Origin: Dehalococcoidia bacterium
GTDB lineage: Bacteria > Chloroflexota > Dehalococcoidia > Bin125
Assembly (NCBI GenBank): GCA_965221705.1
Contig: OZ244908.1
Span: forward strand, 1,011,564 to 1,075,563
Length of the DNA: 64,000 nucleotides
Reading direction: 5' to 3'
Within the stretch, counting starts at the first letter, position 1; every line of letters begins with the position of its first letter. Positions 10,471 through 41,772 of the stretch are shown piece by piece. The translations under genes and the position numbers were made by a program. The notes under the pieces are model-generated. The model was given only the letters and a program-made list of their open reading frames with translations, ran no database searches and was not told where the DNA came from.

Positions 10471-10552
10471 CGGTTCAGCACGTCGCACGCCGGCGTCCCT
10501 CAACTTCCCAAACGCGGCCGACCGCCAGGGCCTCGCTTCTGAAGACAGATTA

Positions 10553-21981: not shown

Positions 21982-22006
21982 CTCGCCGTGACCGAGTTCC
22001 GGACGC

Positions 22007-22504
22007 CTATTCCAACGTCGGATGCGGTTGGTTGAGGGCTTCCTCGGCGCGACGCTGACGGTCTTCGTCGAGGCGTTGCGCGACCTCCGGATTCGAGAGG
22101 CCCAGGATGCGTCCGGCGAGGAGGGCGGCGTTGACGGCGCCGGTGCGCCCGATCGCGACCGTGGCGACGGGCACGCCGCGCGGCATCTGCGCCATCGAGA
22201 GCAGTGAGTCGAGACCGTCAGTCGCCCAACCCTTGACCGGCACGCCGATCACGGGGAGCGGCGTTTTGGCGGCCACCGCCCCTGGCAACGCCGCCGCGCC
22301 GCCGGCTGCGGCGATGATCACCTGGATCCCACGGCCTTGCGCGTCGGCGGCGTACTGCGCGGTCTCGTCGGGCGTGCGGTGCGCGGACAGCACGCGCGCC
22401 TCCCAGGTGATGCCCAGGGACTCGAGTGTCGAGGCTGTGTTCTTGATCGTCTCCCAGTCGGAGTGGGATCCCATCATCACGCCCACCATTGGTCCGTCTG
22501 TCAT
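22007..22504 (-). CDS. purE: N5-carboxyaminoimidazole ribonucleotide mutase
   Basis: [14 protein letters not shown]...[10 protein letters not shown] is canonical PurE. The ORF extends to 22582, but the MTDGPMVG start at about 22504 is more plausible. Confidence 0.9.
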
Positions 22505-22625
22505 CGGCCGGTGCGTCCTCTCACAGTTCATCACACTTGTCGACGCGCTGTTTCGCCCAGCGCTCGAGGGCGCTTGGCGCACGCTGCGCGCTCCAGGACA
22601 AGATACCCCCGTGTACGCTGCGGCT

Positions 22626-25097
22626 ATGACTACGACGACGCAGCTGCCTGTCTACGATCCGGCAGAGTTGGAGCCTCGTTGGCGGCGGCGCTGGGAGGTT
22701 GACGGCCTCTATCACGTCGATGACGACGATCCGCGTCCGCCCTACTACTTCCTGACGATGCTGCCCTACACGAGCGGCGACTTGCACATCGGCCATTGGT
22801 ACGCGATGGCGCCGGCGGATGTCGCGGCGCGTTGGCGACGGATGCAGGGCAACAATGTGCTCTTCCCGCTCGGGTTCGATGCATTCGGACTGCCCGCCGA
22901 GAACGCCGCGATCAACAACAACACGCATCCCAAACAGTGGACCTACGCCAACATCGAGAACATGCGTCGCCAGCTGCAGACGATGGGCGCATCGTTCGAC
23001 TGGCGGCGGGAGTTCGCGACATCTGACCCTGAGTACTACCGCTGGACGCAGTGGTGGTTCTTGAAGCTGTACGAGCACGACCTCGCGTATCGCGCGCCGG
23101 CCGACTGCAACTACTGTCCCGGCTGCGGCACGGTGCTCGCCAATGAACAGGTGCAGCGCACCGACGACGGCGTCGGAGTGTGCGAGCGCTGCGAGTCGGT
23201 CGTCGAGGCGAAGCGCATGGAACAGTGGATGTTCCGGACGACGGCCTACGCCGACGAGCTGCTCAACTTCGACGGGCTCGACTATCCCGAGCCGATCAAA
23301 CTCATGCAGCGCAACTGGATTGGCCGATCGGAAGGGGCGGAGATTTCATTTCCGCTTGGTCGAGCGGTCGGCGGCGAGCACCGCATCACGGTGTTCACGA
23401 CTCGAGCGGACACGCTCTTCGGTTGCACGTTCATGGTGCTCGCGCCCGAGCATCCGCTGGTCGGCGAACTAACCACGGACGACCGGCGAGCGGAGGTTGA
23501 GGCCTACATCGACCAGGCGCGCCGACAGAACGAGATCGAACGACAATCGACCAGCCGTGAAAAGACCGGCGTCTTTACCGGCGCGTACGCGAGGCATCCG
23601 TTTACGGACGAGGCGGTCGCCATCTGGATCGCCGACTACGTGCTGCTCAGCTACGGCACGGGCGCGGTGATGGGCGTGCCCGCTCACGACGAGCGCGACT
23701 TCGCCTTCGCCGCGCAACGAGGGATTCCGATTCCTACTGTGATCGCCGGGCCGGACTGGAATGGCGAGGATTCAAGCGAGGCGTACACCGGCCCGGGTCG
23801 GCTGGTCAACTCGGGACAGTTTGACGGACTGGACTGGCAGGAAGCCAAGCTGGCGATCGCCGATGCGCTCGACGAGCGTGGTCTGGGTGGACGCACCGTC
23901 TCGTATCGTCTGCGCGACTGGCTGATCTCGCGTCAGCGTTACTGGGGCGCGCCGATCCCGATGGTCTACTGCGAGTCGTGCGGCACGGTTCCGGTGCCAG
24001 AGGATCAACTGCCCGTGCTGTTGCCCGACGACGCCGAGTTCCTGCCCACCGGCGCGTCGCCGCTTGAGCGGCATGAAGGGTTCGTCAACACTCCGTGTCC
24101 GCAGTGCGGCGAGTCGGCGCGGCGCGAGACTGACACGATGGACACATTCATGTGCTCCAACTGGTACCCGTATCGCTACGTCGATCCGCACAATCACCAT
24201 GCGCCGATCGATCCTGAGTTGGCTCGCAAGTGGCTGCCGATCGATCACTACACCGGCGGCGCAGAGCATGCGGTGATGCACCTGTTCTACGCGCGCTTCT
24301 TCACCAAGGCGGCGCGCGACATGGGCATTCTCGAGATCGATGAGCCCTGGCTTCGGTTGTTCAATCAAGGCACGATTGTCAAGGGCGGCTTCAAGATGTC
24401 GAAGTCGCGCGGCAACGTCGTCAACCCGGACGAGTGGGTGGAGAAGTACGGCGCCGACACCGTTCGTTTGTACCTGATGTTCCTCGGACCCTGGGAGTCG
24501 GGCGGCGACTGGGACGACAGCGGCATCGCCGGTCAATGGCGGTGGCTGAACCGGGTCTGGAATCTGGCGCTTGAGTCGGTCGAGACTGGCAAGGCTGGCG
24601 ATGGCCAGGTCGACGAGATTCGCCGCGCGACGCATGTGATGATCGGCAAGGTGAGCCAGGACATCGAGCGTTTTCGCTTCAACACGATGATCGCGGCGAT
24701 GATGGAGTTCACCAACGAGCTGCAGGACATTCGCGATCGCGGCCCGGTCGAGGAGTCGGCTTGGCGAGAGGCGATTGCGTCGCTGATCCTCTGTCTGGCG
24801 CCATCGGCGCCGCACATTTGCGATGAGCTGTGGCGACAACTCGGCGGCGAAGGATCGGTGCATGAACAGCTCTGGCCGCAGTATGACGAGTCGTTGGCGC
24901 AGGCTCAGACGGTGACGGTCGTGGTGCAGGTCAACGGCAAGTTGCGCGAAAAACTCAGTCTCCCTCCGGGCGCCTCGCAGGATGACGCGGAGTCGGCTGC
25001 GCGGGCTTCGTCGCGCGTGTCTGACCAGCTCGAGGGCAAGACCTTGCGTCGCGTGGTCTGGGTGCCGGACAAGTTGCTCAACTTCGTCGCCAACTGA
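22626..25097 (+). CDS. leuS: Leucine--tRNA ligase
   Basis: [11 protein letters not shown]...[17 protein letters not shown] (HIGH motif), KMSKS motif and about 824 aa. The ORF track begins at 22107, but the ATG at 22626 gives a canonical N-terminus and avoids overlap with purE. Confidence 0.95.
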
Positions 25098-25143
25098 CCG
25101 CGCCGCTCGCCGTTGAGAGACGCGCCGCACGACTGTCAGAAAC

Positions 25144-25959
25144 ATGGTCCAGCTGCATCTGCCGTCGTATGAGGGACCGCTCGATCTCCTGCTCGAGTTG
25201 ATCGAGGCGCGACAGCTCGACATCTCCGAGTTGTCGTTGGCGCAAGTCGCCGATCAGTATCTCGCTCAGGTCGCGGCGATGTCCTCCTCAAACGAGTCAA
25301 CGGCCGATGTACTGACTGGCGAACAGGCTGACGCGCTGGCGGCGTTCATCAACATCGGCGGTCGACTGGTGCTGATCAAGGCTCGGCAGCTCCTGCCGGC
25401 CGTCGAGTCTGAGGATGACGACGGTGCGGCGAGCGACGCCGAGGAGCTGGTCGAGATGGCCCGCGCGTACCAACGCTATCGCGACGGCATCACAAGACTC
25501 GGCGATCGCGATCGCGGACAGTTGCGCTCGTATGCGCCCGTGGGCGCGCCGCCGATTGACCAGACGTTGCCGCTGGGCATGCCTGAGCAGGTCACGGTCG
25601 AGGCGCTGGCGCGGATCGCGCAGGAGGTGCTGGCTCGGGCTGCCGAGCGAGCGGCGCAGGAGGAAGTCGCCCACGACGCAGCCATCGAAACCCAACGCGT
25701 CACCGTCCGCGACCGAGCCGTCGATCTGCGAGCTCGGCTGGCCAGCGGACACGTGGTTTCGTTTCGCGCCTGGATCGAATCGGCTGAGTCGCGTCTCGAG
25801 CTGATCGTGTCGTTCATGGCTGTGCTCGAGCTGCACAAATCGTTGGCGATTGAGATCGCGCAAGACAACGACTTCGCCGACATTCTGATCACCGCTCTGC
25901 CCGACGCGCCCGACAGCGCCTGGTCGCCGGCGGGCGATGGTTCTTCGTTGGACGACTGA
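25144..25959 (+). CDS. scpA: Segregation and condensation protein A
   Basis: YEGPLDLLLELIEARQLDISELSLAQVADQYL is the canonical ScpA N-terminus. No scpB follows. Confidence 0.85.
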   Translation: MVQLHLPSYEGPLDLLLELIEARQLDISELSLAQVADQYLAQVAAMSSSNESTADVLTGEQADALAAFINIGGRLVLIKARQLLPAVESEDDDGAASDAEELVEMARAYQRYRDGITRLGDRDRGQLRSYAPVGAPPIDQTLPLGMPEQVTVEALARIAQEVLARAAERAAQEEVAHDAAIETQRVTVRDRAVDLRARLASGHVVSFRAWIESAESRLELIVSFMAVLELHKSLAIEIAQDNDFADILITALPDAPDSAWSPAGDGSSLDD

Positions 25960-26057
25960 ATCACGTAGCGGGCTGCTGATAGTCTGAGACTCGGCTGCGG
26001 CGCCTTCCGATCGATCTGATTGAAGCGCGCCGCCATAGTCCTGAAGGGCCGACTCTG

Positions 26058-27020
26058 GTGGTTACCGCGCTCGCCCGCGAGGAACTGCGTCGCGCAGCGC
26101 TGGGTCGACCGACGGCGCTTACGATCGGCGTCTTCGACGGCGTCCATCGCGGACATCAGACCGTCTTGCGACACGTGGTGGAACAGGCGCAGGCGCACGG
26201 ACTGGCCTCGGCCGCGATCACGTTTCATCCGCATCCGCGACAGGTAGTCCGACCCGACCTGGCGATGCAGTACGTCACCTCGCTCGAGGACCGACTCGCG
26301 CTGATCAAACAGACCGGGATCGACAGCGTCGCTACGGTGTCGTTCACTTCCGACTTCTCGCTGACCGATGCGGGCGACTTTGTGCGCATGTTGGTCGAGG
26401 AGCTGCAACTGGCGCGACTGATCATCGGCGAGGACTTCGCCCTCGGACGTCAGCGCGGCGGAGATCCGGAGGCCCTGCAGGCGCTTGGCCGCGAACTCGG
26501 CTTCGACGTCGAGGTGATCGAACTGTTGACCCAGGACTCGGCGGACAAGGTCTCCTCGACCGAGATTCGTCGCGCGTTGTCAGAGGGCGACGTAGAGCTG
26601 GTCAGCGGACTGTTGGGGCGACGATTCTCGCTGCACGGACCGGTCGTCGTGGGCTTCAAGCGCGGAGCGACGATCGGCTTTGCGACCGCCAACGTCGCGG
26701 TCGCCAACGACCGCGCCATCCCCGCGCCTGGCGTCTACGCGACGATCGCGCACTTGGATTCGGGACCAGTAGCGTCGGTGACGAATATTGGCATGCGACC
26801 GACGTTCGACGACGGCGGCGGTCTGTCGATCGAGTGTCACATCATCGACTTTGCGGACGACATCTACGGGACGGATCTACGGGTCGAGTTTGTGCAACGA
26901 TTGCGCGGCGAGCGCAAGTTTGACGGCGTGGAGGCGTTGGTGAAGCAGATCGGCAGCGACCGCGACGCAGCTCGCGAGTTGTTGTCGGCGATGGATTTGA
27001 GTACAGCGACATGGCCGTGA
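26058..27020 (+). CDS. ribF: Bifunctional riboflavin kinase / FAD synthetase
   Basis: GVFDGVHRGHQ FAD-synthetase motif and a C-terminal riboflavin kinase domain (GFATANV...IGMRPTF); GTG start. Confidence 0.9.
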   Translation: MVTALAREELRRAALGRPTALTIGVFDGVHRGHQTVLRHVVEQAQAHGLASAAITFHPHPRQVVRPDLAMQYVTSLEDRLALIKQTGIDSVATVSFTSDFSLTDAGDFVRMLVEELQLARLIIGEDFALGRQRGGDPEALQALGRELGFDVEVIELLTQDSADKVSSTEIRRALSEGDVELVSGLLGRRFSLHGPVVVGFKRGATIGFATANVAVANDRAIPAPGVYATIAHLDSGPVASVTNIGMRPTFDDGGGLSIECHIIDFADDIYGTDLRVEFVQRLRGERKFDGVEALVKQIGSDRDAARELLSAMDLSTATWP

Positions 27021-28282
27021 CTCACGATCAGGTCCCGCCCGATATCGCCGCCGAGGTCGAACGCCAGCACGCGCTGATCATGCGCGGAACCGCTTACGGC
27101 GACGAGGCCACGCGCAAGACGATGGCGCGCGAGTTGCGCGTTCGGCTGACCGAGTCGTTGCTCGAGAATCGACCGCTGCGCGTGTATCTCGGCGTCGACC
27201 CGACCTCGCCCGATCTGCACATTGGACACTGCGTCACGCTGCGCAAGTTGGCGCTGTTTCAGGAGCTGGGACATCAGTCGATTCTGCTGATCGGCGATTT
27301 CACGGGACTGGTGGGAGATCCGTCGGACAAGGACTCGTTGCGTCCGATGCAGGCGGCCGAGATTCTCGAGCGCAACGCGGCGACGTATCGCGAGCAGGCG
27401 TTCAAGCTGCTCGATGCCGAGCGGACGGAAGTCCGCCGCAACAGTGAGTGGTTGGGAGAGATGTCGTTCGGCGACGTGGTCCATCTGGCGTCGAACTTTA
27501 CGGTCCAACAGTTCACCGGCCGCGACACGTTCAAGCGGCGGATTGACGCTGAGCAACCCGTCTACGTTCATGAGTTCATGTATGGATTGATGCAGGGATA
27601 CGACGCGGTCGCGCTGGAGGCGGATGTGCAACTGGGCGGCACGGACCAGACCTTCAACATCATGTGCGGTCGCACACTGCAAGAGCGACGCGAGCAGTCG
27701 CCGCAGATCGCGGTGCTGACGCCGATTCTGGTCGGTACCGACGGCAAGCAGCGAATGTCGAAGAGTACGGGCAACTACATCGGCATCGATGAACCGGCGC
27801 CAGACCAGTACGGCAAGGCGATGTCGATTCCTGACGACGCGATCGTGCGCTTCTTCGACTACGGAACGAACTTCGCCGACGAGGATGTCGACCGGATTGC
27901 GTCGGAACTCGAGGCGGGCGCGCTCAAACCGATGGACGCCAAGCGACGGCTGGCGCGTGCGATTGTCTCGGAGTGGCACGGCGAGTCGGCGGCGGCGGCG
28001 GCCGAGGCGCAGTGGACGCGCACGTTCTCGCAGCGTGGCGTCCCGGACGACATTCCCGAGGCGGCAATCGACTTCGGCGGGGCTGAAGCGATCGACGTTT
28101 CGCTGCCGCAGTTGCTGCACGAGATCGGCGCCGCGCCGAGTCGGGCTGAGGCGAGACGACTGATTACGCAGGGCGGCGTCCGCATCGATGATGTCGTCGC
28201 CACGGAGTTGGGCGTCTCGATCGCGCGCGGCGCGGTGATCCGAGTCGGTCGTCGACGCTGGTATCGGATCGTCTCCGAGTAG
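27011..28282 (+). CDS. tyrS: Tyrosine--tRNA ligase
   Basis: HIGH motif in SPDLHIGHCV, KMSKS motif, C-terminal S4 domain; overlaps ribF by 10 nt. Confidence 0.95.
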   Translation: MAVTHDQVPPDIAAEVERQHALIMRGTAYGDEATRKTMARELRVRLTESLLENRPLRVYLGVDPTSPDLHIGHCVTLRKLALFQELGHQSILLIGDFTGLVGDPSDKDSLRPMQAAEILERNAATYREQAFKLLDAERTEVRRNSEWLGEMSFGDVVHLASNFTVQQFTGRDTFKRRIDAEQPVYVHEFMYGLMQGYDAVALEADVQLGGTDQTFNIMCGRTLQERREQSPQIAVLTPILVGTDGKQRMSKSTGNYIGIDEPAPDQYGKAMSIPDDAIVRFFDYGTNFADEDVDRIASELEAGALKPMDAKRRLARAIVSEWHGESAAAAAEAQWTRTFSQRGVPDDIPEAAIDFGGAEAIDVSLPQLLHEIGAAPSRAEARRLITQGGVRIDDVVATELGVSIARGAVIRVGRRRWYRIVSE

Positions 28283-28327
28283 TTGTTGAGTCGTTAGCCT
28301 CCACCCACAGACAACGGAGGCGTCCAT

Positions 28328-29248
28328 ATGACCGTCACGCTCGATTGGCTCGGCTGCGCAACGTTTCGACTTCAGGTCGACGAGACCGTGATCATGCTCG
28401 ACGCCTACATTGACCGCGTTCCGTCGGCGCCCGACGTCGGGCTGACGGCGGCCGACATCTCCCGCGCTGACGCGGTGCTGGTTGGACACTCGCACTTTGA
28501 TCACATCGCTGGCGCCGAGGTGATCGCGGCGAACACGGGCGCGCCGGTGATCGGCTCCAATGAGTCAGCGCGGGTGCTGCTTGAGGCTGGAATCAGCGAG
28601 GATCTGCTGCTGCGCTCTCAAGGAGGAGAGCGGCATCGCATCGCCTCCAACGTGACGGTGGAGGTGTTTCCCAGTCTGCACTCCTGCATCTGGACGCAGG
28701 GGTCGTGGGATCCGGGCAAGGTCGTCTTGGGTCAGTACGGTTTGACCGAAGAGGAGCGTTGGGGCGGACGCAACGCCATCGACATCGGCGGCACGCTCGG
28801 CGAGCGATCTCAGCAGTCGGATCCCACCGTGCAATCTCAGATGATGGATCACGTCGCGAGTTGCCTCGGATCGTCGGACACGGGCGGCGCCTTGGCCTAC
28901 CTGATCGACACGCCATACGGTTCGATCTTCTATCACGACACTTCGGGCTGTTGGACCGGCGTCGTGCGGAACATGCGGCCCGACGTGGCAATCGTCGCGA
29001 TGGCTGGTCGGCCGAACCTTGACGGCGAGCCGATTCAGGGGTCGCTGGCGCAGTTCGTGGGTCGCATGTCGGACATGCTGCGCGCCCCGCGGATCGTGTT
29101 GGGGCATCACGACGACTGGATGCCGCCGATGACTCAGGACATGACCGGTCCCGATTCGCTGGCGCCGGTCAAGAACGAGCTCAATCATGTCGCGCCGCGC
29201 TCGGAGCTGCTCGACATTCCGCTCGGCGGACGAATCGGACTGTACTGA
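28328..29248 (+). CDS. Metallo-beta-lactamase-fold metal-dependent hydrolase
   Basis: The VGHSHFDHIAG motif (HxHxDH) and overall fold. A GGAGG Shine-Dalgarno sequence lies 6 nt upstream of the ATG. Confidence 0.8.
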   Translation: MTVTLDWLGCATFRLQVDETVIMLDAYIDRVPSAPDVGLTAADISRADAVLVGHSHFDHIAGAEVIAANTGAPVIGSNESARVLLEAGISEDLLLRSQGGERHRIASNVTVEVFPSLHSCIWTQGSWDPGKVVLGQYGLTEEERWGGRNAIDIGGTLGERSQQSDPTVQSQMMDHVASCLGSSDTGGALAYLIDTPYGSIFYHDTSGCWTGVVRNMRPDVAIVAMAGRPNLDGEPIQGSLAQFVGRMSDMLRAPRIVLGHHDDWMPPMTQDMTGPDSLAPVKNELNHVAPRSELLDIPLGGRIGLY

Positions 29249-30270
29249 TGTCACAGAAGTCTCGGCCCAAGTTCGGTCTGATCTACGACTTCCGCAATCC
29301 GCCGCAGTGGCGCAAACCCTGGGCGCAGTTTTACGACGAGCTGCTGGACGAGATCGTCTACGCGGAGGAGCTCGGCTACGACCACGTTTGGATCACTGAG
29401 CACCATTTCATCGACGACGGCTACACGCCGTCGGTGCTGCCGATTGCGGCGGCGATCGCACGTTTGACGTCGCGGATCCGGATCGGCACCTGGGTGTTGC
29501 TGCTGCCCTTGCACAACGCGATCCGCGTGGCCGAGGACGCGGCGACGGTTGACATTCTCTCGAACGGACGCTTCGACCTTGGCGTCGGACTGGGCTATCG
29601 GATCGAGGAGTTCGAGGGCTTTGGCATCAGCCGACGGCATCGGGCGAGCATCATGGATGAGTCGCTTGAGATCATCACGCGCACGCTCGCGGGTGAATCG
29701 GTGACGCTCGAGGGACGGCACTATCAGGTCAAGAACGTTGCGGTGACGCCGCAGCCGATTCAGCAGCCGTTTCCGCTCTGGGTCGGGGCGCGCTCGGAGG
29801 CGGCGGCGCGGCGAGCGGCGCGATTTCGCGCCAATCTGATGATCGTCGCCGACCGACCGGTCTACGACGCCTGGGCAGACGCGTTGCGCGAACAGGGCGA
29901 CGATCCGTCGGACTTCGAAGTGTTGCTCTCGGCGGGCGGCTACGTCAGTGACGATCCCGATGCGCTCTGGGAGCAGCTGAAGCCGCATCAGCGCTATCTG
30001 CGCGACACGTACGGCCAGTGGTATCACGACGCCTCCGACCTGGGCGAGGATGACCCGCTGGGTCAGTTGCTCGAGCAGACGGACGAGGACTTGCGGGCGC
30101 GGTTTGTGGCGGGATCGCCCGACGATGTGGCGGCGGCGCTTGAGCGCACGTTGGAGTGGATTCCAGCGGACCACATCATTACGTCGCCGGTCCCGCCAGG
30201 AGCTTCGCGCGAGCTGGCGCGGCGCAGCATCGAGCTGTTCGCGCGTGAGGTGATGCCGAGGTTTCGGTAG
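29248..30270 (+). CDS. LLM-class (luciferase-like) flavin/F420-dependent oxidoreductase
   Basis: Luciferase-like monooxygenase TIM-barrel signature (GYDHVWITEHHF...GRFDLGVGLGY); start overlaps the upstream gene's stop. Confidence 0.8.
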   Translation: MSQKSRPKFGLIYDFRNPPQWRKPWAQFYDELLDEIVYAEELGYDHVWITEHHFIDDGYTPSVLPIAAAIARLTSRIRIGTWVLLLPLHNAIRVAEDAATVDILSNGRFDLGVGLGYRIEEFEGFGISRRHRASIMDESLEIITRTLAGESVTLEGRHYQVKNVAVTPQPIQQPFPLWVGARSEAAARRAARFRANLMIVADRPVYDAWADALREQGDDPSDFEVLLSAGGYVSDDPDALWEQLKPHQRYLRDTYGQWYHDASDLGEDDPLGQLLEQTDEDLRARFVAGSPDDVAAALERTLEWIPADHIITSPVPPGASRELARRSIELFAREVMPRFR

Positions 30271-30331
30271 ACTGCACGACACGCGGAACGCGACACACGG
30301 CGCTCGCAGCGCTGAGCCTGGAGGCGGACAG

Positions 30332-30523
30332 ATGAAGGTCAAGATCGACACGAGCCTCTGCGAGGGTCACGCGAAGTGCATGGAGGCGACCGAGGTGGTG
30401 TTCGAGGTCCGCGACGACGACCTCTCGCACGTCTTGGTCGACGAGGTGCCGTCGGAGGAGGAGGCGAACGTCGTCCGCGCGGTGCGGACATGTCCGAGGG
30501 CGGCAATCTCGGTGGAGGACTAG
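30332..30523 (+). CDS. Small single-cluster ferredoxin of the type that partners cytochrome P450s
   Basis: 63 aa, MKVKIDTSLCEGHAKCMEATEVVFEVRDDDLSHVL...CPRAAISV. The CxxHxxC...CP pattern is typical of actinobacterial P450 redox partners. A GGAGG Shine-Dalgarno precedes the start. Confidence 0.8.
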   Translation: MKVKIDTSLCEGHAKCMEATEVVFEVRDDDLSHVLVDEVPSEEEANVVRAVRTCPRAAISVED

Positions 30524-33500
30524 TCGTCAATCGTGACGACGACTTTGGCAACCTCCCGATTGCCGTCGGCGTTCACTCGCCATCCGATCCAGCCCTCCTG
30601 GTAACTCACAATCCGGAGCGTGCGAACCCTGATGTAGCGCCCGTGGTCATCCAAGAAACTGACCCTCACATCATCCATATCGACCGACTCAGCCACTCGC
30701 ACCTTGACAAAATAATCCGAGGGCCAGTTATCCAATCGCTCTTGACCGCCACCACGTGTCCCACACGCATCCCGGCGGAACGTTGCAGCCTGCAGGAGTT
30801 CAACTCCCTCTTGCGCAACAAACTCAATGGTCAAATCTGAAATCCCCGACTCCGGACTAGACGGCTCAGCGCACACTCGATCCGGCGCCTCATCAGACTG
30901 GTATTCGACGAAAAACAGCCTACCAACCGGCGAACACACGCCATCCCTCTTTCTCTGACCCTCTATCACCACCTGCACATCCGGGTCGGCGGCATTTGCC
31001 GCATATAGCGCATAAGTCATCCCTCGATTCTCGGCATCTTCAATGTGGCACCGCAGTTCACTCCCACTCGGCGGCACTGTAGTGATGTGCACCGGTCGGC
31101 TAGACAGCGCCGCCGTTCCTACAAGTTGCGGCCCTCGTTGAAACTCGCCCACCATGTCCTTGCCGTCACGCAGATCGGCCAAGACAGAATTCAGTTCACC
31201 GGACTTCAAGGCGCGACCGTCGCCATACAACATGCCCAATAGCTCTTGGCTGCATGGATCAACGATTGGCGCACCATCACCGAATGCGATTAGCCAAGAT
31301 CCAAAACGAAACGAACGCGACTTGATCTCCGTAACCGTGTCGAAAAGCAACATGTAGCGATCAGACCCGCTTCTCGGATAACTGACCAGTACCGCCCACT
31401 CGCCTAGCATTTCATCGACGCCATCGCCAAATCTAACTGGATGGCCAATCCTCATTTCATTACGCTGCCCTACAACCTCCATCAGCGCAAATCCATATCG
31501 GTGATCCTCCGCCACTCGCTGCACAACCATCGAAGACTCACCTCGGGACACAACGCCCCACGGAAGGTCCTCGGGGACACTCGACGCGCGAACAAGAAAC
31601 TCGTTCTTTCCAACGTAGATTGCCGTGCTTGAATCTTCCATTGAGCTGAACTGCCAAGCGGCGCTCGCCAGCTCCGGCGAGACTTGACAGCCAAGCTGCA
31701 TGGTGTCTTCCACATTCATTACTGCCCTTATCTCTGTTGGGGTCAGGTCAGCTTTCCAGCTGACACTGGAAAAAGCCTTCCATCCCCCATTTGCCGGCTC
31801 CTCTTGCTCACTCTCACCCACCCGCGGACAGAGTCGTTCACGATCTGGGACGACGAGACAAACACTCATTACACCCGAGTCACCTTCGATGCGCACCTGA
31901 ATGTGAGAAGTGACGTCGATGCCAGGCTCCACGCCACTGCTTGCACCACGCCGATCTTCGGCCGTACCGGGGCCGAGAAACGATAACCGGTAGGTGTCGA
32001 ATCGCGTCCGGACTTGAATTCCAGTCGGCTCCAGAGCACCGATGCTGGACCATGATCCTGTGAACTTCCGTTCGACGAGTCCGTCGTCCATTGTTCTCGA
32101 GATTATGGAGGTTCCATCTGCCGGTACAGATGCGACTCCTTCGCTCCCGAATAGTGTGAACTGCGGCCAGAACACATTCTCACCGATCTCATCACTTGGA
32201 GGGATCGGAAACTCCAAGTTGACCCGATGCGAAATGTCAGGAGTCGGACATCCTGGCAGCGTCAGATACTCCCATAGCTTAATCGTGCCGAAGTGTTCTT
32301 CAGACGAGTGCACTAGGTTAGCAATCCGCACTGAACCAACGGACTCGCCTTCGAAGCCATTGTAATGGACCCTAGGGCAAAACAATGGCTCGGCGTTAGC
32401 ATCTACGCGCGGCGCCCGATCATAGCCAACAATCCTCACATCGCCCCACTCGCAAGTGTCGGCGTATCTGTACGTCCGCAGATCAAATGGGAAGTCCCTG
32501 ACATTTCCTGCAAAACCCATCCAAAGATCAACATCGTAATGGATGCAATCTGAACCAGCTGGAGGATCTTCAGCATAGTGCCAGATTAGGATGTCAGACA
32601 ACAACTGAGTACTAAGTGGCAGCTGATTGGGCAACTCCGGATAGCTGATCGGCAAGCCCTCTAAGGCTGTTGCTAATGCTCGAGCAGAAGTCGCGATTGT
32701 GCTGTTCGAGTTCACAACGGCGGCCACGCCAATCACGTCAGCGCAGGCGTCGAAGACTGGGTCAGTACTCCTACCGGGTCCAAAGTCACCAGACGTCTCC
32801 AACTCGTCACTATTGACCCGCATCACCACATCTCCGAATGCGACCTTCTGCGCGCCAGGGTGCGTGTATCCGACCATATAGATCGGCTCGCCGATGTCAT
32901 CTTGCGTGGGGGTGCGCAGGGCGAGAGTTGGGATGTCAGCGACCTTCTCGTGGTCGTAGACCTCGAGCAGTGCGACATCGGCCGCTTTGTCGGCGCCGAG
33001 CACTGCTGCGGCGATGTATCGCTCACCTTGACTCAGTGTGACAAACGGCGGCTGGTCCTCGATCACGTGATGGGCGGTCAGGAAGCGACCGTCGCCGATG
33101 TAAAATGCGCTGCCCGAAAATCTTACGGTTGACACTTTCCACGTGCCGGCCATCATGCGCTCAATGTTTGGCTCGCAACTCGGTTCTCCGACCTCGACGA
33201 TGTCAACCTCTGGGTAGATGATCTGCTCTGGGTCGATCGGTGTCGTCCAACTGATCTCACTACTTCGCAGCCAACGATCCCTGGGAGCGCGATCGAGTCG
33301 AATGAAGCGCTTCTCGGGACACTGCAGGTCGCCGTCGGTGGGCTCAAAGCACACCTCGATCCGTCCATCGTCGAGTTGGCGCGTCAGTAACCTACCGCCG
33401 AGCTCGTACTGCGGCTCAGTGGAGTCGGTCGTCGCTTCTTCGGCGGCGGCAAACTGCAGAGCCGCGAGGCCGAACAGGGTGACGACAAGCGTCAACACTA

Positions 33501-33528
33501 CGAGCGCCCCTGCGCTGGCGCGGCGCAT
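30520..33528 (-). CDS. Large secreted protein (1002 aa) with two trypsin-like (S1) peptidase-fold repeats, the second apparently non-catalytic; no other recognisable domains
   Basis: Signal peptide MRRASAGALVVLTLVVTLFGLAALQFAAAEEA. Domain 1 carries candidate His (FLTAHHV), Asp (ADVALLEV) and Ser (PGRSTDPVF) residues. Domain 2 has GDGAPIVD in place of the GDSGGP serine motif. The gene is visibly AT-richer than all of its neighbours. Confidence 0.6.
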   Translation of the reverse strand: MRRASAGALVVLTLVVTLFGLAALQFAAAEEATTDSTEPQYELGGRLLTRQLDDGRIEVCFEPTDGDLQCPEKRFIRLDRAPRDRWLRSSEISWTTPIDPEQIIYPEVDIVEVGEPSCEPNIERMMAGTWKVSTVRFSGSAFYIGDGRFLTAHHVIEDQPPFVTLSQGERYIAAAVLGADKAADVALLEVYDHEKVADIPTLALRTPTQDDIGEPIYMVGYTHPGAQKVAFGDVVMRVNSDELETSGDFGPGRSTDPVFDACADVIGVAAVVNSNSTIATSARALATALEGLPISYPELPNQLPLSTQLLSDILIWHYAEDPPAGSDCIHYDVDLWMGFAGNVRDFPFDLRTYRYADTCEWGDVRIVGYDRAPRVDANAEPLFCPRVHYNGFEGESVGSVRIANLVHSSEEHFGTIKLWEYLTLPGCPTPDISHRVNLEFPIPPSDEIGENVFWPQFTLFGSEGVASVPADGTSIISRTMDDGLVERKFTGSWSSIGALEPTGIQVRTRFDTYRLSFLGPGTAEDRRGASSGVEPGIDVTSHIQVRIEGDSGVMSVCLVVPDRERLCPRVGESEQEEPANGGWKAFSSVSWKADLTPTEIRAVMNVEDTMQLGCQVSPELASAAWQFSSMEDSSTAIYVGKNEFLVRASSVPEDLPWGVVSRGESSMVVQRVAEDHRYGFALMEVVGQRNEMRIGHPVRFGDGVDEMLGEWAVLVSYPRSGSDRYMLLFDTVTEIKSRSFRFGSWLIAFGDGAPIVDPCSQELLGMLYGDGRALKSGELNSVLADLRDGKDMVGEFQRGPQLVGTAALSSRPVHITTVPPSGSELRCHIEDAENRGMTYALYAANAADPDVQVVIEGQRKRDGVCSPVGRLFFVEYQSDEAPDRVCAEPSSPESGISDLTIEFVAQEGVELLQAATFRRDACGTRGGGQERLDNWPSDYFVKVRVAESVDMDDVRVSFLDDHGRYIRVRTLRIVSYQEGWIGWRVNADGNREVAKVVVTIDD

Positions 33529-33561
33529 GATTCGTCACTGCCAAGGATCCGCGGTCCCGAG

Positions 33562-34890
33562 CTATTGCGCGCGGTAGCGGACTAGCTGGCGCTTGATGCC
33601 TCCGACGTGGAGCGAGTTGGGCACCATCTGCGGCTCGCCGGCGAGCTCGAGGTTGGGCAGAATCGGCAGCAGCGAGTGGAAGATGGCGCGCATCTCCCAG
33701 CGGGCCAGGTTGGCGCCGAGGCAGAAGTGCTCGCCGTAGCCGCCGAAGGCGAAATGGTCGTTGGGATCGCGGCGGATGTCGAACTTGTACGGGTCGGGGA
33801 AGACCTCTTCGTCGCGGTTGGCCGACGGGTACCACATGACGATCGAGTCGCCTTTGCGGATCGTCTTGCCGCGCAGTTCGATGTCCTGGGTGGCGGTGCG
33901 CTGGAACTGGATCACGATCGAGGTCCAGCGCAGGATCTCTTCGACGGCGGACGGGATCAACTCGGGGTTGGCGACGAGGTCGTCGAGCTGGTCGCGGTGA
34001 TCGAGCAGCGCCTTGACGCCGCCGGTGATCGAGTTGCGGGTGGTCTCGTTGCCGGCGCCGAGCAGGAGTCGGAAGTAGGACGAGATTTCGCGCGGAGTGA
34101 GCTTGTGTCCGTCGATATCGGCGCGCAGCAGGTCGCTGAGCAGGTCGTCGCCGAGACCGTTGCTCTGACGGTCACGGACGAGTCCTTCGTTGTAGAGGTT
34201 GAACTCGAGGTTGACGCGTCGGATGGTCTGCTCACGGTCTTCGCCGGGCAGGCGGAACTCAGGGTCGGCTGCGCCGATGCCGGCCTCGGTCCAGTGGAAG
34301 ATCTTGTCCCAGTCTTCCTCGGGCACGCCGCCCATGTCGCAGATAGCGGCGACGGGCAGCTTGGCGGTGAGTTCGTGCACGATGTCGACGGCGGAGGTCG
34401 CGCCGCGGTCGGCGAAGTCGGCGATGATTGAGTCGGCGAAGGTCGAGACGTAGTTTTCGGCCATCTCGCCGAAGTGGTCTTCGAGCGTCTTCATCATCCG
34501 AGGGGTGAAGTGGTGAGCGACGAGGCTGCGGTGCTGTCGATGCTCGGGCGGGTCCATGAAGATGAAGTCGGGCGGATCGGAGGGGTGTCCGCCGTAGCGG
34601 TTGGCGTTGATCTCGCGGCCGCGCTCGCCGATGCCGATTGACTCGGTGTCGTTCATGCGCAGGAGCTGGGTGTTGGAGAAGAGGTCGGGGTTGGAGGAGA
34701 TGTAGCGGATGTCAGCGTGTTTGGTGATCGCCCAGAAGGGTTCGAAGTTGGGGCGCTGGTACCAGTAGACGGGCGCCTCGCGGCGGAGGATGTCCCAGGC
34801 TTCCCAGGGATAGCCGTGTTCGACGTAGAGGTCGGTATCGGTGATGTTGAGGTTGTCGAGGGTGAGTGCGGGTCGTTCAGCGGTGACCAT
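33562..34890 (-). CDS. Cytochrome P450, CYP125/CYP124-like (steroid or terpenoid side-chain hydroxylase family)
   Basis: Heme-binding loop FGGYGEHFCLGANLA, the AGNETTRNSI I-helix, an EILRW K-helix and extended similarity to mycobacterial CYP125 by eye; 442 aa. Confidence 0.85.
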   Translation of the reverse strand: MVTAERPALTLDNLNITDTDLYVEHGYPWEAWDILRREAPVYWYQRPNFEPFWAITKHADIRYISSNPDLFSNTQLLRMNDTESIGIGERGREINANRYGGHPSDPPDFIFMDPPEHRQHRSLVAHHFTPRMMKTLEDHFGEMAENYVSTFADSIIADFADRGATSAVDIVHELTAKLPVAAICDMGGVPEEDWDKIFHWTEAGIGAADPEFRLPGEDREQTIRRVNLEFNLYNEGLVRDRQSNGLGDDLLSDLLRADIDGHKLTPREISSYFRLLLGAGNETTRNSITGGVKALLDHRDQLDDLVANPELIPSAVEEILRWTSIVIQFQRTATQDIELRGKTIRKGDSIVMWYPSANRDEEVFPDPYKFDIRRDPNDHFAFGGYGEHFCLGANLARWEMRAIFHSLLPILPNLELAGEPQMVPNSLHVGGIKRQLVRYRAQ

Positions 34891-35028
34891 TTGGCGTCTC
34901 CTGACAATTTCACTCGGATGGGCTACAGCCGCAGAGTAACGGTTCGGGAGACAGGCTGTTGGGTTGATTCGGCTTGGCGTGACTCCGTGCCGACAACAAG
35001 ACTCTCTCGACCGTGATTTGGTCAGACT

Positions 35029-35307
35029 TCAAGGGGTTGGCGTGACAAAGTCGAGGGTAATCACGCGTCTCCCTTCATCGACGTCAAAAAACACATAGAA
35101 CGGCGGCGGCCCGATCAGCACCACGAACCAGAACGAGCCCACCACTTGCTTTCTGACCGGGCCCGACGTCCAGTCAATCCTCAGTCCCCAGACGAAACCC
35201 TCGATGAGATCCTCAAGCAGCTCATCTCCAGCAATATGCTCCTCGTAAGAGTCGAAGAACTGCTCGGACTCTGCGATTTCCCATCCAGATCCAAGTGCCA
35301 TTGACAC
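35029..35307 (-). CDS. Small (about 92 aa) putative toxin partner of the Panacea-domain protein, with faint RelE/ParE-like features
   Basis: Start is coupled to the upstream stop (TAGTG or an ATG 5 nt later). Low-GC composition is shared with its partner. The sequence WEIAESEQFF...GFVWGL...GPPPFYVFFDVDEGRRVITLDFV only weakly recalls RelE/ParE toxins. Confidence 0.45.
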   Translation of the reverse strand: MSMALGSGWEIAESEQFFDSYEEHIAGDELLEDLIEGFVWGLRIDWTSGPVRKQVVGSFWFVVLIGPPPFYVFFDVDEGRRVITLDFVTPTP

Positions 35308-35885
35308 TAGGCCAATTCGCGCAGGGCCAAGAGTTCTTTTCCGATCCGCACTCCAACCTCCTCTATCTCTTGTTCGAAGGGGTCGGCGCTAAGAAAGGCG
35401 CTCTGATATGGGATGTCTCCACCCTGGCTGGCCAAGATCCATCCCGGTTCCCTGTGGGAATAGTCCGACGCTTGCCGGGCCGACATTGGCTTGAAGAACC
35501 CTATCACTGCATCGATTATGTCCTTTTCGGCGGGTTCGAAACACTCTCCGTTGGATTCCTCTCCCTCAATGAGGATCAGTCTCTTCTGAACGCGATTAAA
35601 GAAGGGTCGTGATTCGAGCTTCAAACGCTCCTCGTCGATCAGCTCATCCCGAGCCTGCAGCAACTCCTTGGGCGCGGGGCCGGCTTGCAGCTTGCGATAG
35701 GTGGCGCCGCTGATCGGCTGCCCGAGAAGTCGATAGGCGTCGAAGTCGGAGTAGTAGAGAATCTTGTTGAGTTTGACTGCGCCGAACGACGGATCGTCCG
35801 AACACTGGTCGGCGATATAGACAATCAGTTCCTTGAACTTGTCAAGGTTGAAGTCAAATGTGCGCAGCCTGGGCTCTCTGGACAC
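35307..35885 (-). CDS. Panacea-domain (DUF4065, SocA-like) protein, putative type II antitoxin
   Basis: AVKLNKILYYSDFDAYRLLGQPISGATYRKLQAGPAPKE matches the KLxKLLYYxD...GxPIxGxxY...GPVP Panacea/DUF4065 hallmark. GTG start with a GGAGGTGG Shine-Dalgarno 5 nt upstream; low GC. Confidence 0.7.
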   Translation of the reverse strand: MSREPRLRTFDFNLDKFKELIVYIADQCSDDPSFGAVKLNKILYYSDFDAYRLLGQPISGATYRKLQAGPAPKELLQARDELIDEERLKLESRPFFNRVQKRLILIEGEESNGECFEPAEKDIIDAVIGFFKPMSARQASDYSHREPGWILASQGGDIPYQSAFLSADPFEQEIEEVGVRIGKELLALRELA

Positions 35886-35949
35886 GCTCCACCTCCGTCT
35901 CGTCGAGCGATCACGACAATCCTGTGTACTGACGATAGCCTGACGTGTC

Positions 35950-37278
35950 TCAGGCAGGGCGGTAGCGGACCAGTTGCCGCTTGATACCGCCGACGTGGAG
36001 GAAGGCGATCACGTTCTCAGGAGGGGCGACCAGCTCGAGATTGGGCAGCACTGGTCGCAAGGCGTGGAAGATAGAGCGCATTTCCCAACGCGCCAGATTC
36101 GCTCCGAGACAGAAGTGCTCGCCGTAGCCGCCGAAGGCGAAGTGGTCGTTGGGGTCGCGGCGGATATCGAATCGGTACGGGTCGTCGAAGACGTCCTCGT
36201 CGCGATTGGCCGAGGGATACCAGAGCACGACGGACTCGCCCTTGCGAATCGTCTTGCCGCGCAGTTCGACGTCTTCGACGGCGGTGCGTTGGAACTGGAT
36301 CACGATCGAGGTCCAGCGCAGGATCTCCTCGACGGCCGAGGGAACGAGCGAGGCGTCGTCAACCAGCAGCTGCATCTGGTCGGGATGGTCAAGCAGGGCT
36401 TTGACGCCGCCGCTGATCGAGTTGCGCGTGGTCTCGTTGCCGGCTGCCAGCAAGAGGACGAAGTAGCCGTGGATCTCGCCCGGGGTGAGCGGCCGACCGT
36501 CAACTTCGGCCCTGAGCAGATCGCTGAGCAGGTCGTCGCCGAGGCCGTTGCGTCGGCGTTGTTCAATCAGTTCGGCGTTGTAACGGAACCACTCGACGCC
36601 GATCCGCTCGGTCGCCTGGCTGGGAGACTCGCCGGGCAGGCGAAACTCGGGGTCGTCGGCCCCGACGAGGACTTCCGTCCATTTGAAGATCTGATCCCAG
36701 TCCTCTTCCGGCACGCCGCCCATGGCGCAGATGGCGGCGACGGGCAGTTTGGCCGAGAGTTCGTGCACCAGGTCGACGGCTGATGTCGAGCCGCGCGCGG
36801 TGAAGTCGGCGACGACCTTGTCGGCGAAGTCTGAGACGTAGTTCTCGGCCATTTCGGCGAAGTGGTCTTCGAGCATCTTCATCATGCGCGGCGTGAAGTG
36901 TCGAGCGACGAGGCCGCGGTGCTGTCGATGCTCGGGCGGATCGAGGTAGATGAAGTCAGGCGGATCGTCGGGGTGGCCGCCGGTGCGGTTGGTTCCGGCC
37001 TCGCGTTGTCGAGCGGCCGTGCCCAGCTTGGAGGCCCTATTGAGGCGCAGCATCTGCGAGTTGGAGAAGAGCTCGGGATGCGAGGAGATGTAGCGAATAT
37101 CGGCGTGCTTGGTGATCGCCCAGAAGGGCTCGAAGCCGGGTCGCTGATACCAGTAGACCGGCGCTTCTTGGCGCAGCAGGTCCCATTCCGCCCAAGGATA
37201 ACCGTGGTCTCGATAGCGGTTCGAGTCGGTGATGTCGAGGGTGTCGAGCGTGATGGCTGGGGCGTCGGCGATGACCAT
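35950..37278 (-). CDS. Cytochrome P450, tandem paralogue of 33562..34890 (CYP125/CYP124-like)
   Basis: Identical length (442 aa) and a high-identity alignment to the other P450 along the whole protein (MVIADAPAITLDTLDITDSNRY... versus MVTAERPALTLDNLNITDTDLY...), plus the same FGGYGEHFCLGANLA heme loop. Confidence 0.85.
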   Translation of the reverse strand: MVIADAPAITLDTLDITDSNRYRDHGYPWAEWDLLRQEAPVYWYQRPGFEPFWAITKHADIRYISSHPELFSNSQMLRLNRASKLGTAARQREAGTNRTGGHPDDPPDFIYLDPPEHRQHRGLVARHFTPRMMKMLEDHFAEMAENYVSDFADKVVADFTARGSTSAVDLVHELSAKLPVAAICAMGGVPEEDWDQIFKWTEVLVGADDPEFRLPGESPSQATERIGVEWFRYNAELIEQRRRNGLGDDLLSDLLRAEVDGRPLTPGEIHGYFVLLLAAGNETTRNSISGGVKALLDHPDQMQLLVDDASLVPSAVEEILRWTSIVIQFQRTAVEDVELRGKTIRKGESVVLWYPSANRDEDVFDDPYRFDIRRDPNDHFAFGGYGEHFCLGANLARWEMRSIFHALRPVLPNLELVAPPENVIAFLHVGGIKRQLVRYRPA

Positions 37279-37477
37279 GTTGGTGCTCCGTCAGTACTTC
37301 CACGATGCTTGGACGATGCGTGGGGGGCAGGGTGCTCTGGAGACAGGGTAGCGTCGCCGCCTTAGACTCTGCCCGAGATACCTCAACCACAATGGTGACC
37401 CGACCACGCGGAAGCTCGATCACATGGGAGATGGCGCCGCTCAATCATCGGGCGGCTAGCGCGGCAGGAGAGACACG

Positions 37478-38338
37478 ATGGCCGAAGTCATGCGACCCGA
37501 CGGCACGATCATCCACTACGAGGTCTTCGGCGAAGGGAACAGCGAGATTCCGCTCTTGTTGTTCGCGCCGGGCGGCGTCAACTCGGAGATCGGCTTCTGG
37601 AAGCGATCGATCATCAATCCGATCGAGGCGTTTGCCGATGAGTTCACGGTGATTGGCATGGATCAGCGCCATTGCGGCGCGTCGAAGGCCGGACTGACGG
37701 CGTTCAGCTATGACGAAGCGATGAAGGATCAGATCGCTGTGCTGAACGACCTCGGCGTACCGCGAGCGCACGTCATGGGCGGCTGCATCGGTTGCGCGTA
37801 CGCGCTGCGAATCGCCGATCAAGCGCCGGCGCGAATCGCTGGCGTGGTCATGCAGGACCCGGTCGGACTCGACGAGACCAACTCGCCGGAGACGTTTTAC
37901 GAGATGTTCAACCCGACCATTCGGCTCTGTCGGGCGGAGGGTCTGGAGGCGGTGATTGAGGCGGCGCAGCGCGATCCGGTGTTCATGCAGAACAACGAGG
38001 CGGGTCCGTTCGCTCAGCGCATCCACGACGAGCCGCTGTTCGCGGACGCCACGCGCAGCATCCGTCGCGAGGGGTACATCGCGCTCGTGGTCGAGTTCCG
38101 CGATGGAATGTGGCCGCAGAATCCGCCCTACTTCGCGGTCAACGAGGTCGCTGTGCAACGCACGCTGGCGCCGATGCTAGTGCTGCCGGGCGCTGACCCG
38201 TTCCACCCGACGGGGATTGGCGAGCGGATCTGCAATGAGGCGCCGAACGCGCGCTGCCTGGACGTTGACGCGCGATCGCCCGAGAAGTTGCCGGCGACGC
38301 TCGACGCGATTCGGCAGTTTCTGCGCGACTGCAGCTAG
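37478..38338 (+). CDS. Alpha/beta-fold hydrolase with a GxCxG nucleophile elbow (Cys in place of Ser)
   Basis: Alpha/beta hydrolase topology (LLLFAPGG..., HVMGGCIGCAYAL), about 286 aa. Confidence 0.7.
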   Translation: MAEVMRPDGTIIHYEVFGEGNSEIPLLLFAPGGVNSEIGFWKRSIINPIEAFADEFTVIGMDQRHCGASKAGLTAFSYDEAMKDQIAVLNDLGVPRAHVMGGCIGCAYALRIADQAPARIAGVVMQDPVGLDETNSPETFYEMFNPTIRLCRAEGLEAVIEAAQRDPVFMQNNEAGPFAQRIHDEPLFADATRSIRREGYIALVVEFRDGMWPQNPPYFAVNEVAVQRTLAPMLVLPGADPFHPTGIGERICNEAPNARCLDVDARSPEKLPATLDAIRQFLRDCS

Positions 38339-38394
38339 GTGAGCGGTCTGCAGATATCGGCAGTCTGGTACATCCGCCGTCGTAGCCTGCATGG

Positions 38395-39207
38395 ATGGAC
38401 TGGCTTGAGTTTGTCGCGCTGATCGGCATCGGCATGGGCGTCGGCGTGTACGCGACCGCCGTCGGCGCCGGCGGTGGCTTTCTCTTCGCCCCGGTGCTGT
38501 TGACTCGACACGCCGAGTCCAGCCCGGCCGAAGTCGCGATGGCCTCGATGTGTTTGGTGTTGGCGACGTCGGGGCTGGCGGCGGCCCGACTCGCGCGGGA
38601 CAAGCGGGTCGACTATCGCGCGGTCGGCATGGCGGCCGCGATCGCCGTGCCTGCGGGACTGTTCGGCGCAACGGGGACGGCCCAGCTGCCGCGCGATGTC
38701 TTTGCCGGCGGATTCGCCGTGCTCCTGGCAGCGCTAGGCGGATATCTGATTTGGCGTCCCACCGGCGACGCAGGCGCGTTGGGACAACGCGGTTGGCGTC
38801 GGATGATTCAGGACAAACGCGGAGACCGGTATCTGTACTGGATTCCGGTGCGGCGATCGCTTGCCGTGATCGGGGTGACGTCGGCATTGACGTCGCTGGC
38901 GGGCATTGGCGGCGGACTGTTCTTCTCGATGATCACCGTGCGAGTGATGCGCATGCCCGCCTGGTTGGGGGTGCCCGCCTCGCACGCGATCGTAACGAGC
39001 ATCGCCGTTGTGGTGGTCATCTTTCACACGGCGACGCAGCACTTCGGAGATCCGCTCAACGATGTGCCGCCGCTGCTGATTGGCGCAATGATCGCCAACC
39101 CGATCGGATTGCGGGTAGCGGCGCGAATACGCGAGTCGGCGTTGTCGCGATTACTGGCCGCGGGCATGCTGTTGGTGGCGCTGCGCGTGGCGTTCGAGGC
39201 CTTCTAG
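38395..39207 (+). CDS. TauE/SafE-family (DUF81) sulfite/anion exporter membrane protein
   Basis: Multiple transmembrane helices and glycine-rich GxGGG motifs (AVGAGGGFLFAPVLL...AGIGGGLFF) typical of TauE/SafE. Confidence 0.75.
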   Translation: MDWLEFVALIGIGMGVGVYATAVGAGGGFLFAPVLLTRHAESSPAEVAMASMCLVLATSGLAAARLARDKRVDYRAVGMAAAIAVPAGLFGATGTAQLPRDVFAGGFAVLLAALGGYLIWRPTGDAGALGQRGWRRMIQDKRGDRYLYWIPVRRSLAVIGVTSALTSLAGIGGGLFFSMITVRVMRMPAWLGVPASHAIVTSIAVVVVIFHTATQHFGDPLNDVPPLLIGAMIANPIGLRVAARIRESALSRLLAAGMLLVALRVAFEAF

Positions 39208-39225
39208 CTTGCGCCAGCGCTCTCT

Positions 39226-41700: not shown

Positions 41701-41772
41701 GATCGCACGGTATGGATTCGCTCAGCGGCGGTGCGTTTCAGCGGACAGCTGGTAGCGTCGCAGTCGTAGCCT

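Follow-up and report, generated by a model that had tools for sequence, protein, structure and literature searches.

The gene and its product

The window analysed here is a stretch of 64,000 nucleotides from a Dehalococcoidia bacterium of the phylum Chloroflexota (GenBank assembly GCA_965221705.1, contig OZ244908.1, forward-strand positions 1,011,564 to 1,075,563), and the element in question is a gene at 30520-33528 on the minus strand, labelled BIG and referred to below as the protease gene, whose direct neighbours are a P450 gene and a ferredoxin gene. Its product is a putatively exported protein of 1002 amino acids (aa) in which an HtrA-like protease module is followed by a second, apparently inactive copy, and it belongs to a protein family restricted to Dehalococcoidia. 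An earlier reading of the letters alone (the sequence-only reading) had taken the gene for a compositionally foreign, horizontally acquired one, a candidate effector, adhesin or toxin of unknown function. The gene is divided as follows.

30520..33528, minus strand: whole gene (BIG), ATG start, 1002 aa plus stop; singleton allele class of a Dehalococcoidia-restricted family
33442..33528, minus strand: leader, aa 1-29, with a positively charged start, a hydrophobic core and AAA/EE; presumed Sec signal peptide
33214..33411, minus strand: N-domain 1, aa 40-105, a small beta domain with Cys60, Cys70 and an RW..SSE..W motif
32653..33171, minus strand: module 1, aa 120-292, an HtrA/S1C-like trypsin-fold domain
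33067-33069, 32977-32979 and 32767-32769, minus strand: verified codons of the module 1 triad, His154, Asp184 and Ser254, respectively
31924..32643, minus strand: middle region, aa 296-535, a WHY..PP..C linker and all-beta domains, homologous to the C-terminal region
31729..31923, minus strand: N-domain 2, aa 536-600, a repeat of N-domain 1 (hhalign) with Cys557 and Cys567
31144..31695, minus strand: module 2, aa 612-795, a predicted trypsin-fold pseudoprotease with Ser in place of the catalytic His, Gly in place of Asp, and Asp751 at the nucleophile position
30523..31143, minus strand: C-terminal region, aa 796-1002, two Ig-like or filamin-like beta-sandwiches

The gene is a compositional outlier, as had been suspected by eye and as GC, third-codon-position GC (GC3) and codon-adaptation statistics bear out. 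Its GC is 0.567 and its GC3 0.613, against a mean GC3 of 0.792 (sd 0.042, minimum 0.694) in the 49 other open reading frames (ORFs) of the window (z = -4.3), and its value on an index akin to the codon adaptation index, for which the other genes of the window served as the reference set, is the lowest in the window at 0.452 versus 0.674±0.056 (z = -4.0). The GC trough spans ~30550-33400, is coextensive with the gene and stops at its borders. In blocks of 100 codons, GC3 runs at 0.73, 0.71 and 0.67 over the leader, N-domain and module 1, and then at 0.51-0.63. A mosaic origin, considered on account of this unevenness, was rejected, as in each domain the distance to class 0 equals that to the other sequence classes of the family described below.

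The frame itself is sound. At the gene’s composition, an open frame of 1002 codons has a chance probability of ~5e-17, and the gene is intact and identical in a second assembly of the region (L001, ENA contig_43, equivalent to window positions 22000-42000; L numbers denote loci). The TyrS, LeuS, RibF and MBL-fold genes are fragmented in that assembly, probably through long-read indel errors. A pseudogene was rejected on the grounds of the intact ORF, the conserved cysteines and the integrity of the gene in L001 despite its fragmented neighbours. A 154-aa ORF overlapping the gene on the plus strand (30376-30840) had no Pfam match and was treated as spurious.

The sole hydrophobic segment of the protein covers aa 3-30 and is followed by AAA/EE, and in the AlphaFold2 (AF2) model of the full protein (predicted local distance difference test, pLDDT, 72.9) residues 7-29 of the leader form a helix at low pLDDT. 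All 16 cysteines lie after the leader, and the family alignment shows no variation at 15 of them, so that leader and cysteines together would fit an exported, disulfide-bonded protein. C60, C70 and W86 of N-domain 1 are likewise invariant in the family, and the domain was modelled with a pLDDT of ~82 (AF2). A local hidden Markov model of N-domain 1 matched aa 539-600, within N-domain 2, at E 6.7e-5, while the N-domain had no match in Pfam and none in a profile search of PDB sequences. This Cys-pair domain of ~65 aa is a mobile module, present in four copies in the RCC1-repeat protein P0052 and in four in P0079, and it also precedes Trypsin_2 domains in many proteins of 420-790 aa.

Module 1 was matched by Pfam Trypsin_2 (PF13365) at aa 139-268 with E 2.7e-21, above the gathering score. 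Its putative catalytic residues His154, Asp184 and Ser254 stand in canonical order and are invariant in the family alignment. The nucleophile motif, in contrast, reads GRSTDP in the window protein, where all other classes have G-N/G-S-G-G-P (GNSGGP for the family); G255T and G256D are unique to the window protein and the glycine two residues before Ser254 is retained. Given this motif, proteolytic activity of module 1 in the window protein cannot be assumed.

Alignment of the two halves of the protein (hhalign, aa 36-535 against 536-1002) gave a probability of 99.7% and E 1.3e-26 over 399 columns, which identifies the protein as a whole-unit duplication. The unit of ~480 aa consists of the ~65-aa Cys-pair domain, an HtrA-like S1 domain, a linker and immunoglobulin (Ig)-like beta domains. 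The middle region aligned with aa ~800-970 (hhalign) and was modelled as beta strands with a pLDDT of 40-80 (AF2), and it had no match in Pfam or in the profile search of PDB sequences.

Taken alone, module 2 matched Trypsin_2 in 15 of 18 family members, with a best E value of 5.2e-11. The window’s own module 2 reached E 2.8e-4 and 22.1 bits, under the 27.6 gathering cut-off, and a search of PDB sequences with the module 2 profile returned only sub-significant protease matches (E 0.18-0.5); its strand order in the AF2 model mirrors that of module 1. Among the 18 aligned sequences, the catalytic His is lost in every one and the Asp survives in class 0 only, while the nucleophile position is held by D, T, H, A or R, with Ser in one sequence only. 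Module 2 is thus predicted to be a pseudoprotease throughout the family.

These results refine the picture drawn by the sequence-only reading. Its two trypsin-like modules, the second dead, are borne out by the Trypsin_2 match in module 1, the hhalign probability of 99.7% and the loss of the triad in module 2. The signal peptide it called clear, here a presumed one, is consistent with the leader at aa 3-30 and the AAA/EE junction. The residues it picked as the module 1 triad proved invariant, but in the window protein alone GNSGGP has degenerated to GRSTDP. The lost nucleophile that it read as Gly within GDGAPIVD of module 2 falls, in the profile alignment, at Asp751, with His and Asp gone too. 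The large intervening regions in which it recognised nothing are explained by the whole-unit duplication and the Ig-like beta-sandwiches.

HtrA/DegP/DegS and MarP (Rv3671c) are S1C serine proteases of the PA clan, and module 1 shares their HtrA-like S1 domain. Unlike HtrA/DegP, the window protein has no PDZ domain, and its scores against the respective family models were 26.5 versus a cut-off of 416.2 (TIGR02037, degP_htrA_DO), 25.9 versus 450 (HhoA/HtrA), 21.1 versus 423 (DegS) and 18.8 bits versus 250 (NF033740, MarP). Relative to HtrA and MarP it adds a second, dead protease domain, two novel Cys-pair N-domains, Ig-like domains and the GRSTDP motif. The protein is predicted to work like an extracytoplasmic S1C protease, yet stands outside the HtrA/Do and MarP families.

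Structural matches included RsgI9, UmbA and SMIPP-S. UmbA, from the umbrella toxin particles of Streptomyces, and the scabies-mite SMIPP-S are inactive trypsin-fold proteins. The S1C-like domain of C. thermocellum RsgI9 has been reported to bind cellulose (PMC12203970). The window protein differs from all three in that its dead domain shares one polypeptide with a paralogous domain that is probably active, and it has no sequence relationship to them past the superfamily. Because other inactive trypsin-fold domains act in this way, module 2 most likely serves, by analogy, as a binding or presenting module.

An old address beside a P450 gene

The slot that holds the protease gene, and the second cassette beyond it, are formed by the following genes.

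30332..30523, plus strand: single-cluster ferredoxin, 63 aa (Pfam Fer4_15, Fer4_13); conserved right-hand border of the slot
33562..34890, minus strand: P450b (Pfam p450), 33 nt upstream of the protease gene on the same strand; conserved left-hand border of the slot
35029-35307, minus strand: 92-aa ORF without a family match, which together with the SocA gene makes up a second low-GC cassette between P450a and P450b
35307-35885, minus strand: SocA/Panacea antitoxin-like gene, 192 aa (Pfam SocA_Panacea, 3.7e-18)
35950..37278, minus strand: P450a, paralogous to P450b; the two paralogue types share ~73% aa identity across genomes

The gap of 33 nt between P450b and the protease gene holds no promoter-like or terminator-like site, and the two genes are probably co-transcribed. 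From the other side, the ferredoxin gene converges on the protease gene with an overlap of 4 nt. Both borders are well conserved, with aa identities of 90-97% for the ferredoxin in close relatives and 86-93% for P450b in relatives.

In ~30 related Dehalococcoidia genomes, many of which are sponge metagenome-assembled genomes (MAGs), a homologue of the protease gene is found in this same slot between P450b and the ferredoxin. The gene order of the window is repeated in L002, L003, L005, L006 and more than 20 further loci; it runs PriA, TauE, hydrolase, P450a, the SocA cassette where present, P450b and the protease gene, and continues on the opposite strand with the ferredoxin, an LLM oxidoreductase, an MBL-fold protein, TyrS, RibF, ScpA and LeuS. 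In every case, the protease gene at this locus starts 0-42 nt after P450b on the same strand. In more distant relatives (metagenome loci L047-L057 and L063; P450 71-78% identical), the hydrolase, P450 and ferredoxin genes are directly adjacent, and the P450 and ferredoxin genes share a strand and are accompanied by neither a second P450 nor a protease gene. The ferredoxin gene is inverted in all genomes of the clade that carries the protease gene. The adjacency of P450 and ferredoxin in the outgroups, together with the synteny shared within the clade, indicates that the protease gene entered this pair in the ancestor of the clade and not in the present genome. The family therefore has an old, fixed address just downstream of P450b in its Dehalococcoidia clade.

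The family is narrowly distributed. A HMMER scan of 1.84 billion representative proteins returned 43 matches at E<=1e-30, about a dozen of them full length, and the next tier of matches had an N-domain and protease domain only; across searches of ~15 billion proteins, no homologue of the window protein exceeded 36% full-length identity. A word-indexed protein search repeated with the family alignment recovered 11 proteins, all of them already known from the first one. In a set of bacterial and archaeal genomes with one genome per species, all 33 loci with a full-length relative (L007-L039) lay in MAGs labelled Chloroflexota or Dehalococcoidia. Several of these relatives have isolate names that bear the prefixes IRC, COS, RHO or SB06, or that name bin125, and such names presumably denote sponge-derived MAG sets from work on seven host sponges, among them Ircinia ramosa, Coscinoderma matthewsi and Rhopaloeides odorabile, which reported 242 Chloroflexota MAGs and found restriction-modification systems to be enriched (PMC8163846). 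No family member was found in a scan of viral contigs, which yielded generic protease domains only (27-38% identity), and the literature on sponge Dehalococcoidia and serine proteases held no description of the family, the protein being unnamed in the sources searched.

These data bear directly on the proposal that a lineage-foreign gene was recently acquired by horizontal transfer and interrupts a P450-ferredoxin operon. In its favour are the atypical composition, the singleton cluster without a close homologue, and the outgroup loci in which P450 and ferredoxin adjoin without the gene. However, the family is confined to this Dehalococcoidia clade and holds its position in ~30 genomes, which makes the interruption older than the clade, and each of them already has the ferredoxin in inverted orientation. 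No family member turned up in viral contigs, and no integrase, tRNA or flanking repeats are in evidence. A recent acquisition is very improbable. The sequence-only reading was right about the convergent 4-nt overlap with a P450-type ferredoxin (30332..30523, plus strand) and about an interrupted pair, given the adjacent pair in distant relatives, but the interruption is ancestral to the clade. It had itself named conservation at the locus in relatives as evidence that would tell against a private insertion, and, as far as presence of the family is concerned, that is what the homologues at the exact position in ~30 genomes provide. The unusual feature is the allele (30-36% identity where the neighbours reach 70-93%), while the family is resident at the locus.

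The fixed position also invites the view that the protease is a functional partner of the P450/ferredoxin system, for example within an operon processing a shared substrate. At this locus the gene invariably follows P450b at 0-42 nt and in the same orientation, the gap in the window is free of promoter-like or terminator-like sites, and in L005, where the order is P450a-copy-P450b-copy, the P450-BIG pair occurs twice. Yet the outgroups have P450 and ferredoxin without the gene, four family copies elsewhere in the genomes lie beside unrelated genes with no P450 nearby, P450b is 86-93% conserved while the protease is hypervariable, and the P450 is cytoplasmic whereas the protease would be exported. 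We consider such a partnership highly improbable.

One non-syntenic copy (L034 5928-15005, from the genome that also contains L016) is flanked by an animal-type haem peroxidase of 922 aa and by an RCC1-repeat protein; these two are eukaryote-like and of the kind discussed for sponge symbionts. The SocA cassette (35029-35885) has a GC of ~0.55 and a GC3 of 0.69 and is found only in some relatives (L003, L008-L010, L016, L019, L028, L031). Elsewhere in the window, two ABC-transporter permease genes (6497-8646, minus strand) that adjoin a family-5 solute-binding protein gene (8683-10587) show a milder GC dip (0.59-0.61), which probably reflects the composition of membrane-protein genes and not foreign DNA.

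Variation in the slot and origin of the window allele

In relatives, the interval before the ferredoxin is variable. A second family copy is present there in L003, L007, L012, L013, L015 and L039; these second-slot copies are divergent and have a GC3 of 0.67-0.70 in genomes at ~0.80, and those of L007, L015 and L039 show the same 4-nt overlap with the ferredoxin as the window gene. Slot occupants in relatives also comprise MmeI-like enzymes, BglII with an N6/N4 methylase, XcyI, a PLD-like nuclease and an HNH gene, and restriction-modification or nuclease genes lie between the protease gene and the ferredoxin at the following positions.

L006: 5992-9265
L008: 13371-16292
L010: 13493-16087
L016: 13099-14702
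L019: 13073-14533
L032: 13332-15673
L035: 13014-14126

The interval between the protease gene and the ferredoxin thus resembles a defence-gene hotspot in relatives. That the protease is itself a component of an anti-phage defence system, lying as it does in a hotspot of restriction-modification and toxin-antitoxin genes, would agree with the sharing of this interval by restriction-modification systems and a Panacea-type cassette in relatives and in the window, and with PADLOC matches to the RT-Protease_XI, LmuA and HamA models. Those matches are confined, however, to the generic protease domain (aa 123-273) and none is full length. In addition, the leader and cysteine content are typical of extracellular proteins, the family is present with or without restriction-modification genes, and its copies elsewhere adjoin unrelated genes. 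A role as a defence component is accordingly very doubtful.

The 44 homologues fell into at least nine deep classes that are 31-45% identical to one another. Class 0, with 25 genes, is the usual occupant where the flanks most resemble those of the window, and among its 275 pairs identity never falls below 58%, even with P450b at 84-88%. For close class-0 pairs, the ratio of non-synonymous to synonymous substitution rates (dN/dS) is 0.09-0.33, versus mostly 0.01-0.10 for flanking genes at similar dS, and by this estimate the protease family evolves several-fold faster than its neighbours yet is constrained. Within class 0, the divergence of P450b and that of the protease are poorly coupled (L035 versus L037: P450b 99.3%, protease 67%, TyrS 80%), which suggests recombination or gene conversion across the locus. 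P0011, the sole match at 44% identity, proved to be a truncated copy of class 0 whose similarity is limited to the conserved N-terminal third.

The window protein forms a singleton class, and its 90%-identity cluster has one member, on two contigs. Its flanking proteins share 70-93% identity with their orthologues, but the protein itself only 30-36% with any homologue, and its identity to class 0 (32-36%) is the same as that to every other class in each domain. At the nucleotide level, similarity to relatives breaks off at the end of P450b, at its stop codon (33558-33562), and is picked up again at that of the ferredoxin (30521-30529), and a class-0 orthologue is absent from the window genome. 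The protein lacks 28 of the 132 positions conserved in all other classes (21%, compared with 3-10% for any other class), and 11 of these losses fall at aa 216-272 around Ser254 (W239N, G255T, G256D, G263A, W270A, G272V and others). It keeps the remaining 104 universally conserved positions and all conserved cysteines.

At replacement-type flexible genomic islands, such as O-antigen and surface-protein loci, one function is encoded by alternative cassettes that have diverged deeply, while the flanks are conserved. The present slot resembles them in its conserved flanks (70-97% aa identity), between which classes of one family at 31-45% identity are found with breakpoints at the gene borders, and in its low-GC cassettes, copy-number changes and co-resident restriction-modification systems. 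It differs from them in that each genome here is a different species, the collection having one genome per species, and recombination is inferred; the only other assembly of the region carries the same allele.

The window gene is probably a divergent cassette of a clade-specific, fast-evolving secreted protease-pseudoprotease family at a variable hotspot. Such a cassette would have come from an unsampled, lower-GC member of the same clade by recombination or transfer, and it would either have replaced a class-0 gene or represent a second-slot copy that survived the loss of class 0. Transcription may proceed from the P450b promoter.

Several observations weigh against a cassette of this origin. 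The window protein has the longest branch in the family tree, which is a neighbour-joining distance tree only, and it is marginally nearest to class 0 (Kimura distance 1.28-1.32 versus at least 1.33). Its GC3 (0.61) lies below that of every sampled family member, and no donor was identified. There is no tRNA in the window and no integrase, and flanking repeats are only short and at chance level. The sponge origin of the window genome itself is undocumented, the sponge labels coming from the names of relatives.

The first of these points would also suit a resident class-0 orthologue that evolved very fast in situ, under relaxed or positive selection and with AT-ward drift but no transfer. The longest branch and the smallest distances to class-0 members agree with this scenario, as do the loss of 21% of conserved positions (others 3-10%), with 11 of the 28 near Ser254, the raised dN/dS across the family and the absence of mobility signatures. 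The GC3 drop of ~0.18, however, is limited to one ORF and begins and ends sharply where the neighbouring genes have their stop codons, and it counts against divergence in situ because a genome-wide mutation bias would not hit one intact, constrained gene alone. Identity to class 0 equals identity to all other classes in every domain, and none of the 275 class-0 pairs drops under 58%, even where the flanks have diverged as much or more. Furthermore, low-GC3, deeply divergent classes sit beside class 0 in relatives, from which it follows that a pool of alternative cassettes exists. Runaway divergence in place is therefore unlikely, though the protein's marginal proximity to class 0 and its long branch leave this reading an appreciable minority chance.

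Possible role and significance

If the window gene is a cassette of an exported protease-pseudoprotease family, its product may act outside the cell on host, phage or competitor targets. Module 1 would cut, and module 2 and the Ig-like domains would bind; in the window allele, the altered surroundings of the active site may weaken or retune catalysis. A more far-reaching interpretation, which we offer tentatively and hold to be possible but not probable, is that the family serves sponge-associated Dehalococcoidia as an exported interface protein, a hypervariable combination of protease and pseudoprotease. Balancing or diversifying selection, exerted by the host or by phages, would maintain its deep classes, recombination between the conserved flanks, P450b and the ferredoxin, would exchange them, and the window allele would be a newly sampled class in which the catalytic module is turning into a second binding module.

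The building blocks of the protein, an S1C-type protease and an inactive trypsin-fold domain, are known. In the libraries searched, the fused and duplicated architecture with two unclassified domains is undescribed, as are the restriction to one symbiont-rich Dehalococcoidia clade and the occurrence of classes at 30-45% identity at one fixed address beside restriction-modification systems. For studies of horizontal transfer, the locus counsels caution, as atypical composition at a conserved address may mark a new allele brought in by a swap rather than the gain of a gene. The family also provides a natural series for a protease domain turning into a binder. If the exported protein mediates contact with the sponge host, with phages or with neighbouring cells, it would be a candidate for a fast-evolving interface factor of uncultured sponge symbionts.

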